64,000 nucleotides of DNA from Candidatus Moraniibacteriota bacterium (lineage in GTDB: Bacteria; Patescibacteriota; Minisyncoccia; Moranbacterales; UBA1568), in assembly GCA_049287005.1 (NCBI GenBank), contig JBAQEZ010000003.1, forward strand, positions 605,670 through 669,669. The letters are read 5' to 3'. A program made the position numbers and the translations under genes. Numbering within the stretch: the first letter of the stretch is position 1; the number at the start of each line of letters is the position of its first letter. Shown here piece after piece: positions 10,014 to 34,366 of this stretch. The notes under the pieces are model-generated. The model did not search any database, had not been told where the DNA came from, and saw only the letters and a program-made list of their open reading frames with translations.

Positions 10014-10028
10014 GCTGGGGTGCTAGGA
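10014..10028 (+). repeat. 15-nt direct repeat of the tRNA-Gln 3' end (att-like core)
   Basis: gctggggtgctagga is identical to tRNA-Gln positions 34295–34309 on the + strand. Confidence 0.7.
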
Positions 10029-10064
10029 ACGCTCACTGCTCACTTTCATATCATAACATATAAA

Positions 10065-10164
10065 AGCTCCGCTCTATAGAGCTTCTGCCCTCTAGCCCTG
10101 TTTACAGGTCACCTCAAACTGGGAACTCCCGTTCCCCGACCCTCTCCCGTTCGAATCCTAACAC
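10065..10164 (-). ncRNA. R1, a structured repeat element of about 100 nt (candidate ncRNA or element-end sequence); the strand is uncertain
   Basis: Homologous to R2 (12758–12865), with compensatory changes in two hairpins. It also contains a T-loop-like GTTCGAATCC. Confidence 0.45.
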
Positions 10165-10180
10165 TACAAACAAATAAGCT

Positions 10181-10216
10181 AAAAGGATGTCTGAAATAAT
10201 CGAACATCCTTTTAGC
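10181..10216 (-). terminator. terminator hairpin after gene 10255..10548
   Basis: A 10-bp stem AAAAGGATGT / ACATCCTTTT. Confidence 0.5.
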
Positions 10217-10223
10217 TTCATCA

Positions 10224-10250
10224 GCTGAGGCTCTGGGACGAAGTTGGAAC
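10224..10250 (+). repeat. intercistronic repeat copy B
   Basis: The same motif family. It is contiguous with the stop codon of the 10255..10548 gene. Confidence 0.8.
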
Positions 10251-10254
10251 TTAT

Positions 10255-30861: not shown

Positions 30862-30866
30862 ATTAT

Positions 30867-33380
30867 TTATCGTGTAATACCCGAAAGTTTATTTCTCATT
30901 GTTTCCTGTTCATCAGATGGCAGTAGCAACAATAAGTTGTGAACGCAGCGCTTTAACTCGTCAACATCACCAAGCTCTATTGCGCGTCTGCCTTTCTCGG
31001 TATAATAACCAGCTTCCTTTTCATTGATAAATTTCTTATTACCATCGGTAAGTTGACTGAATTGATAGGCCCATGTTGCCGGATTAGAAAACAAAGCCTT
31101 GCCACCAAGTTCCTTGATTTGCTCGTTTACTCGGACCAGGAGAGCTTTATCATTTTCTGCTATAGCCTTTTCTCCTTCTTCTTTCATTTTTTTGAGATGC
31201 TCCTCGTGCTGTACTTTGTCTTTATCATCACCAAGTTCAGTGATAATTGTTTGGGTAGTTTCTGTGCTCTCTTTAAATTCTTTAAGCAACTGGGGCATCT
31301 CTTTTTCCTTTTCAAGTCGATCAATAGCTATTTTTAAATCCTTAAGTTGTTTGTTTGCCTTAAGCTTCTCGTCTTCGTCAATATGCGCGTTCCTCAAGCT
31401 GTTTGCTACCGAATTGATCGTGTTATTAAGTCTATTCTTTTCCTCAGTAGAACAGTTTTCAGAAACAGACCGTGCTCTTTCAGTTTGTATATTTAAATCA
31501 TATTCAATAGTCTTAACTTCTAGAGTTTCATCTTGCGCTGTAGAACGAGCCTTGAGGGTGAGGTCAACCAAAGGAATATAAGCGGTCACAAAGACTTCGC
31601 GCGACTCATTCATTTCGACAGTCAATTCCAATGGAGTTCCTTCTGGTAGATCATGAGGTAAATCCTTGCCATTAACGCCTAGCTCACAAAGATAGGTGTT
31701 GCGATCAGGGATCTCGGACTCGCCCTCAACCAAGGTAATATCCAATTTGCCTTCTTCATTTTTCCTTAGTTTTCTGGAAGTTTTTAAATCAGTTAGGACT
31801 TTCTTAATAGGAAGTATAGATCCCTTGTCGAAAATCTTCTCACAAACGTTTGTTGCAATATTCCGAATATGATCCTTTTTAGCTACAATTACACCAACCG
31901 AATGAGGCAATGGTGCACCGGATACTGATAGCCCCTGGGTAATAGAAAATGAGTCAGGATCAACCAAAACAGAATTGCCGTCTTTGTCAAAAAGGTAAAT
32001 CCAATAGACGTTTGGCTTGCCTGGTTCGACAGCAACCGTATCAAAAAATTTGCCACTCTTTAACTTGATTTTTGAACCATTATAAAATCCGCTGTCTGAT
32101 TGAATTTGTATATAATATTCTTCTTCGGAATCTTTAATATCCTCTATGACACCACTGATTGTTTCTTCGGTATCGGAAGTCAGAGATTCATAATTCAGAT
32201 TGATAGACATTGTCCCTTTTTTGAGTTTCTGAGGGTCATTTTCTATGAGTTCCTTCGGAATCTTTTGTCCAATTCCAAATACACAAGCACCTCTTGCAAC
32301 GACTGTGAGAGGGTCAACAGACGCATCTGCGATTATTTTAAGTTCGCTTTCTATTCTTTCACGAATGTATGGGATTTGAGTTGGTCCGCCAACGAGAATT
32401 ACCTTTGCAACAGAACTATTCTTAATACCAGCATCTTTCAATGTCTCCTTCGAAAGCTCAATGGTGCGATCAACCATTGGTTTGATTAGTTTTTCAAATT
32501 CTTTCCTCGTAAAATCAATGGTAAGAAAAACCTCTTTGCATTCATTGTCATTCCCGATGTTCTCTACTACGATTGATGTTTTTTCGTATTCGGAAAGTTC
32601 AATTTTAGCCCTCTCAGCAAAGAATTTCAATTGGGAAAAAATACCGCGGTATTTTTCATTGCCTCTATTGAAATTATTAATTGAAAATTTCTCTAAAATC
32701 TTTGGCACTATTACTTTGTCAACAATCTCCAAATCAAAGTTCTTACCACCAAGAAAATTGTCACCGTTATGACCAAGCACTGAAAGTGCTCTATCTTTGG
32801 AAGCTATCAAAGCTACGTCAAATGTGCCTCCACCAAAATCATAAATGAGCCAATTTTCATTCTTGGTGTTTGTGAAACCATAAGCAATAGCAGCGGCTAT
32901 CGGCTCTTGTAATAGTATTACGTGTTTAAATCCGGCAAGATTTCCAGCACGCTTTGTTGCTTCAGACTGTAAAACCGAAAAAGCAGCTGGAACCGTGATT
33001 ACGGCAGCTACGGTATTGAAGTCTGTATATTTTCTTAAAATGTCCTCTTTTAGACTTTTAAGGATCTCAGCCGAAATTTCTTCCGGCCCCATTTCTATAC
33101 CAGCTCTCTCAAAATAAAAAGTTTCCGAAGTGCCCATCAGCCTTTTAACTTCGGGTTTGTAGTTTTTTATCTCATCTTCAGATGCGTCCTTATAAAAATT
33201 CTCATAAGCCTTCTGACCAACCACTTTATTCTTTGATTTATCAAAACCAAACACAGACGGCGTATATTCAACACCGCCAGGTTTTTTGACGATTTCAATA
33301 TTGCCGTTATTGTTTATAGCAATAGATGAGTTTGTTGTACCCAGATCTATGCCTATTTGAATACTTTGTTGACTGGCCAT
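30867..33380 (-). CDS. atypical Hsp70-family ATPase (DnaK-like NBD plus a roughly 460-aa non-canonical C-terminal region)
   Basis: Carries [25 protein letters not shown] and ILVGGPTQIPYI. The C-terminus lacks a DnaK-type substrate-binding domain. Confidence 0.8.
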   Translation of the reverse strand: MASQQSIQIGIDLGTTNSSIAINNNGNIEIVKKPGGVEYTPSVFGFDKSKNKVVGQKAYENFYKDASEDEIKNYKPEVKRLMGTSETFYFERAGIEMGPEEISAEILKSLKEDILRKYTDFNTVAAVITVPAAFSVLQSEATKRAGNLAGFKHVILLQEPIAAAIAYGFTNTKNENWLIYDFGGGTFDVALIASKDRALSVLGHNGDNFLGGKNFDLEIVDKVIVPKILEKFSINNFNRGNEKYRGIFSQLKFFAERAKIELSEYEKTSIVVENIGNDNECKEVFLTIDFTRKEFEKLIKPMVDRTIELSKETLKDAGIKNSSVAKVILVGGPTQIPYIRERIESELKIIADASVDPLTVVARGACVFGIGQKIPKELIENDPQKLKKGTMSINLNYESLTSDTEETISGVIEDIKDSEEEYYIQIQSDSGFYNGSKIKLKSGKFFDTVAVEPGKPNVYWIYLFDKDGNSVLVDPDSFSITQGLSVSGAPLPHSVGVIVAKKDHIRNIATNVCEKIFDKGSILPIKKVLTDLKTSRKLRKNEEGKLDITLVEGESEIPDRNTYLCELGVNGKDLPHDLPEGTPLELTVEMNESREVFVTAYIPLVDLTLKARSTAQDETLEVKTIEYDLNIQTERARSVSENCSTEEKNRLNNTINSVANSLRNAHIDEDEKLKANKQLKDLKIAIDRLEKEKEMPQLLKEFKESTETTQTIITELGDDKDKVQHEEHLKKMKEEGEKAIAENDKALLVRVNEQIKELGGKALFSNPATWAYQFSQLTDGNKKFINEKEAGYYTEKGRRAIELGDVDELKRCVHNLLLLLPSDEQETMRNKLSGITR

Positions 33381-33392
33381 AGTAACAGCAGA

Positions 33393-33920
33393 TTAATTAT
33401 TGCTAAGTAGAATTATTTTAGCCTTTCGAACAACCTGACCTTTACACATAATAGTTGGCTCCACGGTTTCTTTTATTGTTGGCTCCAAAAGAGAGGCGTC
33501 TTTTTCCACAGATAGAATATCGAGATTAAGTCCCTCATTATATTTTTGGTTCTTATAGTCAATAATTTTGATGTCGTACTTTTCAAGATATCGCATTAAC
33601 TTTTGCACAGAATTTTCTAAGCCCTTCATTTGGTTTTCAGGCAAACTCGAAGCCGATTTAGCTATACGCTGTTCAATGCGCCATACTTCAACGGCAAGAT
33701 CAATTAAATCATTTACACCAATGGATAACTCGATAAATTTAGGCGCTACAGCAAACTTGATTTCTTCTTTTATTTTTAAATAAACGTCATTAATTTTGTT
33801 GATCTCACTTTTTTTAGTTAAATATGCAAGTAGATAAAGGATAACAATTAAGGTTGCGGCTATAAATAAAAATAGGAAGGGAATTGAATAATTTAAATTC
33901 GCTATCATTGAATTAGTCAT
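33393..33920 (-). CDS. membrane-anchored GrpE-like nucleotide-exchange-factor candidate
   Basis: An N-terminal TM helix. The C-terminal stretch KYDIKIIDYKNQKYNEGLNLDILS...EPTIMCKGQVVRKAKIIL aligns with the host GrpE sequence ...TIEAKEGETFDPSIHEAL...VVQKGYKFGDRVIRPAKVIV. Confidence 0.45.
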   Translation of the reverse strand: MTNSMIANLNYSIPFLFLFIAATLIVILYLLAYLTKKSEINKINDVYLKIKEEIKFAVAPKFIELSIGVNDLIDLAVEVWRIEQRIAKSASSLPENQMKGLENSVQKLMRYLEKYDIKIIDYKNQKYNEGLNLDILSVEKDASLLEPTIKETVEPTIMCKGQVVRKAKIILLSNN

Positions 33921-34119
33921 GATTTTTATGTTTAATGAATTTCAATAAATCGTCTTTTCGATATCTTCGATCTCCTCTAGTACCGAATCGGATTGCTTTC
34001 AAAATTCCCTTATTATCCCAATTCCGGAGCGTGTTTGGGTGGCAATTCAATACTTCACACGCCTCTTGAAGCGTCAAGATTTCTGGATATTCCTCGATTT
34101 TCTTCGGTTGAGTCTTCAT
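33913..34119 (-). CDS. excisionase/AlpA-family HTH DNA-binding protein
   Basis: LTLQEACEVLNCHPNTLRNW...FGTRGDRRY. It lies adjacent to the tRNA-Gln attachment site. Confidence 0.6.
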   Translation of the reverse strand: MKTQPKKIEEYPEILTLQEACEVLNCHPNTLRNWDNKGILKAIRFGTRGDRRYRKDDLLKFIKHKNHD

Positions 34120-34292
34120 AGTTTTTTTGACTTACTATTAGTCTACAACTTCCCTGCGAATAAGCAAGTATGAAAAGCACCGCCAAAGAAACTAAAAACA
34201 ACCTAATTTTGATTAGGATATTTTACTTCTTATCTTAAAATTCTTAAACGATAGGTTACTACGCATCTCGAGCGTTATAACCTATCACGACT

Positions 34293-34366
34293 TGGCTGGG
34301 GTGCTAGGATTCGAACCTAGGGTCATGGGACCAGAACCCATTGCCTTACCGCTTGGCCACACCCCA
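34293..34366 (-). tRNA. tRNA-Gln(CUG)
   Basis: The reverse-complement reads UGGGGUG-UG-GCC-AAGCGGUAA-GGC-A-AUGGG-UUCUGGU-CCCAU-GACC-CUAGG-UUCGAAU-CCUAG-CACCCCA-G-CCA. It has a U1-A72 pair and an encoded CCA, as in bacterial tRNA-Gln. Confidence 0.9.

Follow-up and report, generated by a model that had tools for sequence, protein, structure and literature searches.

The 3′ end of a tRNA-Gln(CUG) gene in a Candidatus Moraniibacteriota genome faces a long block of low-GC DNA, and the question is how this block was built. We analyzed a window of 64,000 nt around it (contig JBAQEZ010000003.1, positions 605,670-669,669), for which an earlier note had proposed tandem accretion of mobile elements at the tRNA gene. 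Our preferred reading, held with a probability of roughly 0.68, is that 8.8-34.3 kb is a variable region that grew through successive site-specific insertions into the tRNA 3′ end, with a large element (element B) as the newest insert and older integrase-less blocks behind it.

Repeats of the tRNA-Gln 3′ end

34293-34366, minus strand: tRNA-Gln(CUG), target gene (ARAGORN; Rfam, 60.6 bits)
13577-13620, minus strand: third tRNA-Gln-3′-like piece with a short partner arm (sequence, pattern scan, alignment; weak alone)

ARAGORN, Rfam and the sequence bear out the earlier placement of the tRNA gene, whose 3′ end (...CACCCCAGCCA) points to lower coordinates, into the island. GC content is 0.34-0.42 from ~8.8 kb to 34.29 kb and 0.47-0.54 in the flanks; the block, described as ~24 kb long, is indeed low in GC, but since this stretch starts at ~8.8 kb it reaches ~1.2 kb past the outermost repeat, at 10014.

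The tRNA end contains the proximal junction core TTGGCTGGGG (34292-34301) and a 15-mer, GCTGGGGTGCTAGGA, which occurs in exact form at only two sites in the window, 34295-34309 and 10014-10028. With at most two mismatches, 0.04 chance matches are expected and none of 100 shuffles held two or more; its local-alignment score of 30 exceeds that of all 60 composition-preserving shuffles (highest 29). The repeat at 10014 is thus real rather than spurious. A degenerate copy, previously placed at 12712-12745, begins at 12714 with the exact 10-mer shared with 34292-34301, followed by a gapped match across the T-loop. Its score of 26 was equaled or exceeded in 6 of 60 shuffles and is not significant alone; we accept the copy as real on the strength of homology, since its place inside a conserved 150-200-nt element is that of the 15-mer. 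The earlier note missed a third piece at 13577-13599 (GCTGGCCTCCTCGAGTTAGAACC), identical to the tRNA at 16/23 positions, which has the junction CATAATATTTTTT in common with the 12.7-kb copy and lies 10 nt upstream of the start codon of an HD_3 gene. In shuffles and the pattern scan, the 12.7-kb and 13.6-kb copies each fall individually in the chance range. T-arm similarity among tRNAs also gives a match at 1569-1584.

The repeats lie in a structured module

10014-10172, minus strand: EL1, structured att-type module (covariance model, 122 bits)
12714-12860, minus strand: EL2, structured att-type module (covariance model, 130 bits)

The conserved element, named R element in the earlier note and EL here, is a structured module of ~150 nt, with one arm that copies the tRNA-Gln 3′ end directly and one that copies it in inverted form; conservation spans 150-200 nt in the two window copies and four other contigs. 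The 3′ arm of EL1 (10014-10028) is the exact 15-mer of the resident gene, followed by ATATA and no CCA, like the tRNA-Gln genes of relatives. Its 5′ arm (10149-10167) is an inverted copy of T-arm and acceptor, including an inverted T-arm 12-mer (10149-10160) that had also been missed. In EL2, the 3′ arm (12714-12745) represents a foreign type of tRNA-Gln 3′ end, with the acceptor CTCCCCAG also present in contigs L002 and L135; the 5′ arm (~12840-12860) repeats it in inverted orientation. The covariance model finds seven copies in five contigs (68-130 bits), with arms that covary with tRNA type and a consensus fold of 36 pairs, of which 13 show compensatory changes. The fold is about equally good on both strands, so that EL may also have an RNA function.

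A putative satellite-like element beside the tRNA gene

33913-34119, minus strand: HTH_17/MerR-type protein, 68 aa, excisionase-like, beside the tRNA junction (Pfam HTH_17, 1.5e-11; PHROG excisionase families)
26884-33920, minus strand: cargo module (Pfam; PADLOC)
33393-33920, minus strand: GrpE-like protein (Pfam)
30867-33380, minus strand: Hsp70, 837 aa (Pfam)
29215-30861, minus strand: 548-aa protein, no family (Pfam)
within 26884-33920, minus strand: 207-aa protein
27968-28576, minus strand: RDD membrane protein (Pfam)
26884-27975, minus strand: AAA ATPase matching IetA models (PADLOC IetA, 1.2e-35)
24649-24783, plus strand: LOOT RNA (Rfam RF03000; 60.6 bits, gathering score 46.4), directly after the integrase gene
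23255-24610, plus strand: large serine recombinase (integrase), 451 aa (Pfam Resolvase, Recombinase and Zn_ribbon_recom; PHROG integrase, 5e-62)
18459-23058, plus strand: conserved core of element B (Pfam; PHROGs; gene order)
18459-19118, plus strand: LexA/CI-like repressor (Pfam, PHROGs)
between repressor and methyltransferase, plus strand: 258-aa ORF
19892-21250, plus strand: ParB-N6/N4 methyltransferase (Pfam, PHROGs)
21156-21635, plus strand: small terminase (Pfam, PHROGs)
21619-23058, plus strand: large terminase (Pfam, PHROGs)
13910-18325, minus strand: further cargo (Pfam; PADLOC; blastp)
17867-18325, minus strand: LTD-domain protein (Pfam)
16434-17861, minus strand: Shedu SduA nuclease (PADLOC SduA, 6e-16)
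15330-16427, minus strand: Zn-ribbon protein with a 39% homologue in L083 (blastp)
within 13910-18325, minus strand: small membrane ORF and 313-aa ORF without family

Judged by its genes, element B (about 12.7/13.6-34.3 kb) resembles a phage satellite: an integrative element that has neither capsid nor tail genes. Pfam, PADLOC and PHROGs confirm the content listed for it before: serine recombinase, Xis-like HTH, terminase, methyltransferase and Hsp70 module. Its junctions have a 10-bp core, CCCCAGCCAA, in common. The proposed extent of ~21.5 kb (12746-34292) is less firm, as the left end may lie at 13.6 kb instead of 12.7 kb.

Some 10 kb separate the integrase gene from the tRNA junction, whereas the large serine recombinase genes of L084, L165 and L168 adjoin the tRNA-Gln 3′ end or, in L165 and L168, overlap it; Pfam and PHROGs found no tyrosine integrase in the window. 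Homologues of the window integrase (60-69%) occur in L082-L085 and L137, and in L082 the genes for repressor, methylase, terminase and integrase are arranged as in element B. In IMG/VR contigs, integrase homologues together with LOOT RNA adjoin tRNA-Gln, tRNA-Ser or tRNA-Glu, and LOOT RNA is present in 4/4 of those with a homologous integrase. Element B is, by this comparison, a putative member of a recurrent mobile family.

Cassettes closed by a 27-nt motif

12958-13566, minus strand: HD_3-domain cassette gene (Pfam, 5.9e-18)
12902-12928, minus strand: R copy 5, 27-nt core (extended repeat 12893-12935)
10255-12705, minus strand: integrase-less cassette block (Pfam; R copies)
12202-12705, minus strand: AAA_18 kinase-like gene (Pfam)
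12171-12197, minus strand: R4, inside the small element
11694-12161, minus strand: membrane ORF
10979-11659, minus strand: short-chain dehydrogenase (Pfam)
10586-10936, minus strand: ORF
10559-10585, minus strand: R3, inside the small element
10255-10548, minus strand: ORF
10224-10250, minus strand: R copy 2, followed on the gene strand by a terminator-like hairpin (10176-10214)
8812-9981, minus strand: cassettes past the outermost repeat (Pfam; gene table of L172; composition)
9460-9981, minus strand: peptide deformylase, def (Pfam)
9407-9433, minus strand: R1, outside both proposed elements
8812-9396, minus strand: serine hydrolase (Pfam)

The adjoining ~2.7-kb unit had been described as a decayed element without an integrase. 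An integrase is indeed absent, but the unit is a small-cassette block and its decay is not demonstrated, since similar blocks lie downstream of tRNA-Gln in many other contigs. The low-GC cassette region continues past the repeat at 10014 through def and the serine hydrolase, after which panD (8451-8792, GC ~0.48) is probably core genome. Across contigs, the cassette genes encode small enzymes (NUDIX, ASCH, GrpB, HAD, APH and others). None of the contigs examined yielded a recombinase for R or for the small blocks.

The 27-nt motif, R, was thought to occur twice and to show that the two elements are related. It occurs five times (9407, 10224, 10559, 12171 and 12902), once outside both elements and twice within the small one, and gives no evidence of kinship because, by its distribution, it is a cassette-boundary motif rather than an element-specific one: 85 metagenome contigs carry it, with unique flanks. 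R forms same-orientation arrays of up to six copies, follows a stop codon by 0-15 nt in ~40/60 cases, and marks the exact point, at either edge, where sequence identity stops in two independent contig pairs. Of the 11 contigs that extend 5 kb or more past the last R, 8 have tRNA-Gln there, never in the opposite orientation; the 21 tRNA-Gln genes compared represent 18 distinct sequences. None of the six nearest GTDB relatives examined has R, not even L006, where 8 kb of sequence follow the tRNA-Gln gene. It has no dyad symmetry and is in this respect unlike a classical recombinase core site. Neither R nor EL has an Rfam match, even at E<=1, and these conserved non-coding signals, recurring beside tRNA-Gln in many metagenome contigs, appear undescribed.

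Distal repeats track the resident tRNA

The downstream repeat equals the contig's own tRNA-Gln 3′ end over 16 nt in L135, 19 nt in L160 and 18 nt in L112 (15 nt in the window), and the tRNA-Gln sequences of these four differ, each repeat tracking its resident gene. L135 carries a tandem pair of ELs; one, ~230 nt long and gene-free, directly follows the tRNA terminator. In L091, L126 and L103 a terminator follows the repeat, as after a genuine tRNA-Gln. This recurrence, together with serine recombinases at tRNA-Gln elsewhere, upholds the integration site and the view of the repeats as att remnants. As the collections contain no close relative, the nearest share only 64-68% identity in flanking proteins, and neither an empty site nor an excised circle was seen, we infer the mobility of the window island and the succession of integrations.

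A model of repeated insertion and its alternatives

In the reading we favor, the region would have grown by repeated site-specific insertion into the 3′ end of tRNA-Gln(CUG). Element B, the newest and largest insert, would have been integrated by its serine integrase, and the tRNA-Gln 3′ end at its distal junction is of a type known from other Moranbacteria, in keeping with an element that brought along its own attP. Behind it would lie older blocks of small enzyme genes without an integrase, mobilized in trans, each block closing with EL and single cassettes closing with R, which ends in CAGC like tRNA-Gln; R and EL would then be recombination sites. If so, junctions tRNA-Gln|ATATATTT and tRNA-Gln|CAAAAAATATT, or a circular EL2-CCCCAGCCAA-GTCGTGATAGG, are expected.

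A tentative alternative, which overlaps with this model for the small blocks and makes a stronger and more novel claim, is integron-like gene capture: a recombinase encoded elsewhere would insert circular cassettes singly, with R in the role of attC, the CAGC-ending tRNA-Gln 3′ end in that of attI, and EL as a second folded, possibly single-stranded site mimicking the tRNA duplex. The arrays of short same-orientation genes, each immediately followed by R, fit this idea, as do the contents resembling integron cassettes, the CAGC that ends both R (on the gene strand) and almost all tRNA-Gln genes, and the equivalent placement of R and tRNA-like pieces, 7-33 nt before start codons. Breakpoints exactly at R edges fit as well, although homologous recombination between 27-34-nt repeats could produce the same breakpoints. 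It is further weakened by R lacking the imperfect palindrome that defines attC, by several R-to-R intervals holding two or three genes, and by the failure to find an integron-type tyrosine integrase near any array.

We consider it unlikely that R and EL act without recombination, at the RNA level, R being a signal for processing or binding in 3′ UTRs or between cistrons, EL a tRNA-like element that serves processing or stability, and the tRNA-like pieces local duplications. The fixed orientation of R, which directly follows stop codons on the gene strand, the multi-stem EL fold with its compensatory changes, and the position of EL1 and EL2 in the 5′ leaders of def and the kinase gene would suit such roles. 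They leave unexplained why it is tRNA-Gln in particular that precedes the R arrays, always in a single orientation, why identity breaks at R edges between contigs, and why the EL repeat is the resident tRNA's own 3′ end in differing lineages; a sense-strand fold no better than the antisense one and the absence of Rfam matches also argue against them. Chance matches or generic T-arm similarity in a low-GC, fast-evolving core genome, compatible with the individually insignificant 12.7-kb and 13.6-kb copies and the T-arm match at 1569-1584, are disfavored as very improbable by the 15-mer that beats all shuffles, the homologous 150-200-nt elements that hold the repeats, the same architecture with tRNA-specific 16-19-nt repeats in unrelated contigs, and the integrase, terminase, repressor and excisionase-like genes of the region.

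Relation to known systems

Element B resembles phage satellites (PICI-like) in having an integrase, a repressor, an excisionase-like gene, terminase genes and defense cargo and no capsid, portal or tail genes. It differs in its serine-recombinase integrase, its CPR host, the presence of both large and small terminase, and in having no known helper phage.

The attP of CTX-phi of Vibrio cholerae has two inverted target-like copies ~100 nt apart, which can form a single-stranded hairpin imitating the double-stranded target; in that system XerCD act at dif. The EL arms could fold in the same way.

R arrays share with integrons short same-orientation genes, each directly before a conserved boundary site, a fixed chromosomal anchor and small accessory enzymes as content. 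Integrase-free cassette arrays (CALINs) are known (PMC5737381). No IntI was found at R arrays, which are anchored at a tRNA gene end and not at attI beside intI, and R is conserved in sequence, without hairpin-forming inverted repeats, whereas attC is conserved in structure and not in sequence.

Like Islander/TIGER tDNA islands and prophages (PMC4383910), the island studied here has an intact tRNA gene at one end, its displaced 3′ fragment as a direct repeat at the other, an internal integrase and atypical composition. Those islands are typically tyrosine-integrase elements, unlike this one, in which a conserved structured element encloses the repeats.

The ssrA islands of Dehalococcoides, serine-recombinase islands that accumulate in tandem, carry 20-bp repeats of the RNA-gene 3′ end and include members without an integrase (PMC3146451), offer what we regard as a precedent. 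As proposed for the window, the insertion target is a small structured-RNA gene, entered at its 3′ end, a distal direct repeat of that end (~20 bp) is preceded just upstream by a conserved motif, repeats and islands pile up in tandem downstream, ParB-family and DNA-modification genes belong to the integration module, and many islands, like our small blocks, have no integrase (PMC3146451); their large serine recombinase gene may also overlap attL (PMC3146451), an arrangement seen here in L165 and L168. Their target is tmRNA and their motif 15 bp long, whereas the window, from a CPR lineage, has tRNA-Gln as target, a ~150-nt structured module with an inverted second target copy, an integrase 10 kb from the junction and paired with LOOT RNA, and small blocks subdivided by R, which has no counterpart there.

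Displaced copies of the tRNA-Gln 3' end

The tRNA-Gln(CUG) gene borders element B, a large satellite-like insert, beyond which lies a small block of integrase-less cassettes. Features of the gene and the element are listed below; except for the tRNA and the integrase, assignments come from Pfam, PHROGs and PADLOC.

Features of element B and its target (window positions)
34293-34366, minus strand: tRNA-Gln(CUG), called by ARAGORN and Rfam (60.6 bits), 3' end towards lower coordinates
Element B, adjoining tRNA-Gln: 68-aa excisionase-like HTH protein
23255-24610, element B: large serine integrase, 451 aa (Pfam, PHROGs)
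Element B: LexA/CI-like repressor
Element B: ParB-N6/N4 methyltransferase
Element B: terminase, small and large subunits
Element B: Shedu SduA
Element B: IetA-like AAA ATPase and RDD protein
Element B: 837-aa Hsp70 and GrpE-like partner

GC content is 0.34-0.42 over ~8.8-34.29 kb, compared with 0.47-0.54 in the flanks. The earlier note had proposed that the 3'-terminal tRNA sequence recurs here as direct repeats, and this stands: the 15-mer GCTGGGGTGCTAGGA occurs in the window only at 10014 and inside tRNA-Gln, even with up to 2 mismatches allowed (0.04 sites expected), and its alignment score exceeds those of all 60 block-shuffled windows. The second, degenerate copy that it placed at 12.7 kb holds in part: an exact 10-mer, TTGGCTGGGG, at 12714 is extended by a gapped match through the T-loop, and taken alone this copy lies within the chance range of the shuffle test, but the copies at 10014 and 12714 each start an intergenic segment and the two segments are homologous over ~200 nt. 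A third, weak copy lies at 13577-13599 and has the junction CATAATATTTTTT in common with the 12.7-kb copy, and the T-arm is copied in inverted orientation at 10149-10160. A loose pattern for further tRNA-3'-like pieces gave 7 matches with 5.3 expected, hence no overall enrichment. Neither the 15-mer nor the conserved modules described below can be put down to chance; what supports the weaker copies as putative tRNA-derived repeats is the homology of their context.

The 10014 copy is followed by ATATA, without an encoded CCA, and looks like the original 3' flank of the tRNA, since the tRNA-Gln genes of relatives (contigs L168 and L086) look alike. The acceptor of the 12.7-kb copy is CTCCCCAG, typical of tRNA-Gln genes from other Moranbacteria (contigs L002 and L135), as expected had B carried an attP adapted to another host. 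Islander-type islands are recognized by an intact tRNA gene at one boundary, here tRNA-Gln at 34293-34366, by a same-orientation displaced 3'-end repeat at the far boundary, here the 15-mer at 10014 and the 12714 match, and by an integrase within the island, here the serine recombinase at 23255-24610.

Element B resembles a satellite with defense-type cargo

The gene content previously attributed to the large element was recovered with Pfam, PHROGs and PADLOC, but its left end may lie at 13.6 kb rather than 12.7 kb, because of the third tRNA copy at 13577. Read in tRNA sense, with a slash at the junction, the proximal end is ...CACCCCAGCCAA/GTCG at the tRNA and the 12.7-kb end is ...CCTCCCCAGCCAA/AAAATATT. 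Pfam found no tyrosine integrase anywhere in 8.4-34.2 kb and, within the 10.0-12.7 kb block, no integrase at all. No capsid, portal or tail family of PHROGs or Pfam was matched among the B ORFs scanned, several of which had no match of any kind, so that B looks like a satellite or defective prophage with defense-type cargo: among these ORFs it has the integrase, repressor and packaging genes of such elements, without structural genes.

A co-oriented module at 26884-33920 (minus strand) encodes the Hsp70, the GrpE-like protein, a 548-aa protein of no family, two small membrane/RDD proteins and the IetA-like AAA ATPase. PADLOC had no match for the Hsp70, GrpE-like, 548-aa or RDD protein of this module. 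The Hsp70/GrpE-like/AAA set, which neighbors Shedu, is a candidate new defense or chaperone-based system. At the inner edge of the cassette array, a 313-aa ORF (13910-14851, minus strand) has no match in Pfam, PHROGs or PADLOC; by eye, it shows an Rx4H motif (LRNQLAH) that is suggestive of a HEPN-type nuclease.

The integrase belongs to a clade that carries LOOT RNA

Directly 3' of the B integrase gene lies a LOOT RNA (Rfam RF03000; 24649-24783, plus strand), matched over model positions 1-121 at 60.6 bits, above the gathering threshold of 46.4. Integrase homologues with 60-67% identity are encoded on four IMG/VR contigs, each with its own LOOT RNA (L082 16354-16475; L083 11325-11454; L084 3454-3581; L085 1847-1969), which places LOOT at 5/5 loci of this large-serine-integrase clade. 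The RNA lies within ~150 nt of the integrase gene in the window, L083 and L085, and kilobases away in L082 and L084. As a guide to the integrase's tRNA target it found no support, the longest cognate matches being 5-7 nt and the longest non-cognate ones 5-8 nt. A tRNA gene (Gln, Ser or Glu) is present on three of the four contigs, close to the contig end in L084 and L085 and at the end of the retrieved stretch in L083, and L082 has the same order of repressor, methylase, terminase and integrase, followed by unrelated cargo. From these homologues and the L082 gene order, B is a member of a recurrent family of CPR mobile elements with cargo between integrase and junction.

Large serine recombinase genes, related and unrelated, abut or overlap the 3' end of tRNA-Gln in L084 and in two further comparison contigs, L165 and L168; no distal repeat was found for the L165 and L168 elements in the sequence examined. 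The L168 element (oriented 123-6495) is a distinct one, lying between an R copy and a tRNA-Gln near-identical to that of the window, and encodes a ThsB-like TIR protein, a caspase-like protease, an NgoPII restriction-modification pair, Rep (ORF2/G2P) and the large serine recombinase, whose gene overlaps the 3' end of tRNA-Gln. In two R-bearing contigs, a 186-aa ORF (L094 1545-2105; L150 891-1451, oriented) has 55% identity to integrase residues 269-440 only, at the C terminus; this ORF starts ~150 nt from R, and the integrase gene thus appears truncated beside an R junction.

The R motif punctuates cassette arrays

Five copies of R, a conserved 27-nt motif, lie in one orientation in the window (9407, 10224, 10559, 12171 and 12902), one beyond the outermost tRNA repeat and two within the small block. 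The earlier note had taken this motif for a property of its two elements, which does not hold: R lies outside both at 9407, and the pattern GCTGANNNTNTGGGAYGANGTKGGAAC is present in 85 metagenome contigs with unrelated flanks, in a census of one exact degenerate pattern across one collection. An island-specific repeat is thereby rejected. R was not found in IMG/VR, nor in the integrase-bearing viral contigs.

Many of these contigs carry arrays of 2-6 same-orientation R copies at gene-sized spacing. R sits on the gene strand, 0-15 nt from the upstream stop codon in ~40 of 60 cases and 7-103 nt from the next start codon, and some copies fill the 40-nt gap between two genes. By Pfam, the array genes elsewhere encode small enzymes (NUDIX, ASCH, EamA, GrpB, DUF2726, APH, HAD), and the window cassettes a hydrolase, a deformylase, a dehydrogenase, a kinase-like protein and an HD protein. 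Identity ends exactly at one R edge in two independent contig pairs, with divergence to the right of R in L156 vs L161 and to its left in L094/L115 vs L150, which argues that R marks exchange junctions.

R arrays are linked to tRNA-Gln. A tRNA-Gln gene (CUG or UUG, ARAGORN) is carried by 21 contigs retrieved for R alone, and L165 is a 22nd, with an Rfam tRNA fragment cut by the contig end and the anticodon loop CTG. Its side relative to R and its orientation never differ from those in the window, and of the 11 contigs with 5 kb or more past the last R, 8 have it. Among the 21 genes there are 18 different sequences, so many lineages are involved; the comparison loci are all metagenome fragments with no taxonomy attached. 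The final four bases are CAGC in all but one of the 21, and R closes with these four as well on the gene strand.

Small GIY-YIG-type genes, recognized by eye from the motif YxYILxxxxxxxYIGxTxxLxxRxxxH, lie directly 5' of tRNA-Gln in seven R-bearing contigs; loci were recorded in L119 (5836-6237, ~6044-6100), L125 (7763-8080), L098 (6960-7343), L109, L116, L139, L151 and L093. In L119 one such gene is flanked by a truncated 5' copy of tRNA-Gln on one side and by the intact tRNA-Gln on the other. From this placement, the 5' side of tRNA-Gln may also be a target of mobile genes. In L109 and L116 the annotated tRNA-Gln(UUG) is followed, ~90 nt downstream, by another, partial sequence that resembles tRNA-Gln(UUG) and drew no ARAGORN call; in L109 it lies at 5382-5470 (oriented).

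EL modules carry copies of tRNA-Gln 3' ends

The tRNA copies at 10014 and 12714 open EL1 (10014-10172) and EL2 (12714-12860), two instances of a structured module, EL. Homologues of these window segments (~150-200 nt) occur in the comparison contigs L135 (two copies), L091, L103 and L126. In tRNA sense, the 5' arm carries the tRNA-Gln 3' end in reverse complement, with GAGGAAAG after it, the middle holds conserved internal stems, and the 3' arm repeats the tRNA-Gln 3' end directly as far as CAGC. The arms track tRNA type: CTAGCAC and CTAACAC in window copy 1, CTTCCTCC and TTACCTCC in the others. In L135 the 16-nt 3' arm equals the contig's own tRNA-Gln sequence, 4.8 kb away, and a second EL directly follows the tRNA terminator as a gene-free unit. 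L160 and L112 share the architecture but differ in core sequence, their repeats being 19 and 18 nt long. In L091, L126 and L103 a terminator follows the EL 3' arm, as it does the real tRNA-Gln; the order of element end, core and original downstream flank is the one predicted by integration at a tRNA 3' end.

The consensus fold of EL has 36 pairs, 13 of them with compensatory changes among only seven copies. Folding energies are -16.5 kcal/mol for the sense and -14.7 kcal/mol for the antisense strand, and covariation is similar on both. A covariance model searched against the comparison loci found no copies beyond the seven used to build it. Rfam at E<=1 gave no match to R or EL in 8-14 kb and none in related loci, and a known RNA family is rejected for both.

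The site in related genomes

With FtsE as query, the best matches are Patescibacteria/Moranbacteria MAGs at up to 68% identity, and the window thus comes from a CPR bacterium without a close sequenced relative. When window proteins were looked up by exact sequence, the only contigs recovered were Logan contigs of the same strain, with sequence identical to the window, and one protein had no record. The HD_4 protein beside the tRNA had no match in the genome contigs scanned. The flank protein at 34515-35174 is identical to a MAG protein annotated as Candidatus Moraniibacteriota and had, beyond itself, a single homologue (64%), on a 2.5-kb contig. The contig of the closest GTDB relative stops exactly at its tRNA-Gln 3' end (L002, 11714-11786), and a same-strain Logan contig (L001) breaks ~160 nt into the island; both breaks fit a region at tRNA-Gln that is variable or repeated. 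Elsewhere in the window, at the edge of a second low-GC stretch (1-2000), Rfam (42.4 bits) recognizes a 116-nt tRNA at 1561-1676 (minus strand) that default ARAGORN missed, with a ~45-nt insertion after the anticodon arm, a poor T-stem and, by eye, the anticodon loop CTGACAA.

Probable repeated insertion at tRNA-Gln

Repeated site-specific insertion at the 3' end of tRNA-Gln is the best-supported reading of the locus. Tandem accretion, as first proposed, is supported by the repeats, by the tandem units of L135 and by the architecture of L160 and L112. The small blocks have no recombinase and so would move in trans or by accretion. B would have been integrated by its own large serine integrase, the obvious candidate. 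Excision of B alone would leave the junction ...CACCCCAGC/CAAAAAATATTATGAATAAT and excision of all blocks ...CACCCCAGC/ATATATTTATGACTAG; circular B would join EL2...CCTCCCCAGCCAA/GTCGTGATAGGTTATAACG, or alternatively use the 13577 site.

The position, orientation and breakpoints of R and EL point to both as putative recombination sites. They may instead act at the RNA level, but such a role leaves unexplained the linkage of R arrays to tRNA-Gln, the breakpoints at R edges and the repeats that match each contig's own tRNA. Extending insertion at tRNA-Gln beyond this locus, we give a probability of roughly 0.35 to a tentative general picture: that many CPR/Patescibacteria lineages have a gene-capture system at the tRNA-Gln 3' end, in which R delimits small cassettes and EL, possibly a folded mimic of the target, larger blocks, and in which a recombinase inserts and shuffles these units, as a functional analogue of integrons whose sites follow another logic.

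The genomes of CPR bacteria are tiny, and their means of acquiring genes are poorly understood. If this picture holds, tRNA-Gln would be a general landing pad for their accessory genes, and R and EL could help to locate variable regions, and their limits, in thousands of fragmentary MAGs. The two signals also offer a handle for finding the recombinase by phylogenetic co-occurrence, and defined substrates for testing a CPR large serine integrase, a class of enzymes useful as genome-engineering tools.

Comparison with known systems

Searches of Rfam and of the literature on CPR integrons, tRNA-Gln integration and Patescibacteria islands returned no description of tRNA-Gln-tied R arrays or of EL. 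The ssrA islands of Dehalococcoides have 20-bp repeats, more than a dozen of them in tandem, and include 15 islands without an integrase (PMC3146451). The loci described here likewise form tandem islands ending in repeats of the target 3' end, integrase-less ones included, with 2-3 nested repeats in the window and two tandem units in L135. In ssrA islands, however, a CcrB/DsiB-type large serine recombinase lies at the attL end and overlaps the target gene, whereas the window integrase is 9.7 kb from the tRNA; by gene position, L165 and L168 have the ssrA-type placement and L084 nearly so.

As in integrons, cassettes form a same-orientation array with a site after each gene. An integron has the tyrosine recombinase IntI beside its array, whereas neither the window island nor any of 8 R-array contigs has a Pfam match to Phage_integrase; and attC sites are imperfect inverted repeats (R''-L''/L'-R') that fold into a hairpin, whereas R is conserved in sequence over 27-34 nt and has no partner arm. 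R is therefore rejected as an integron attC, and the arrays, although they behave like those of integrons, lack two features that define the integron family. Taken together, B is a new representative of known kinds of element, namely tDNA-integrated islands, serine-integrase islands and satellite-like elements, and there is a substantial chance that the cassette system constitutes a new recombination platform.
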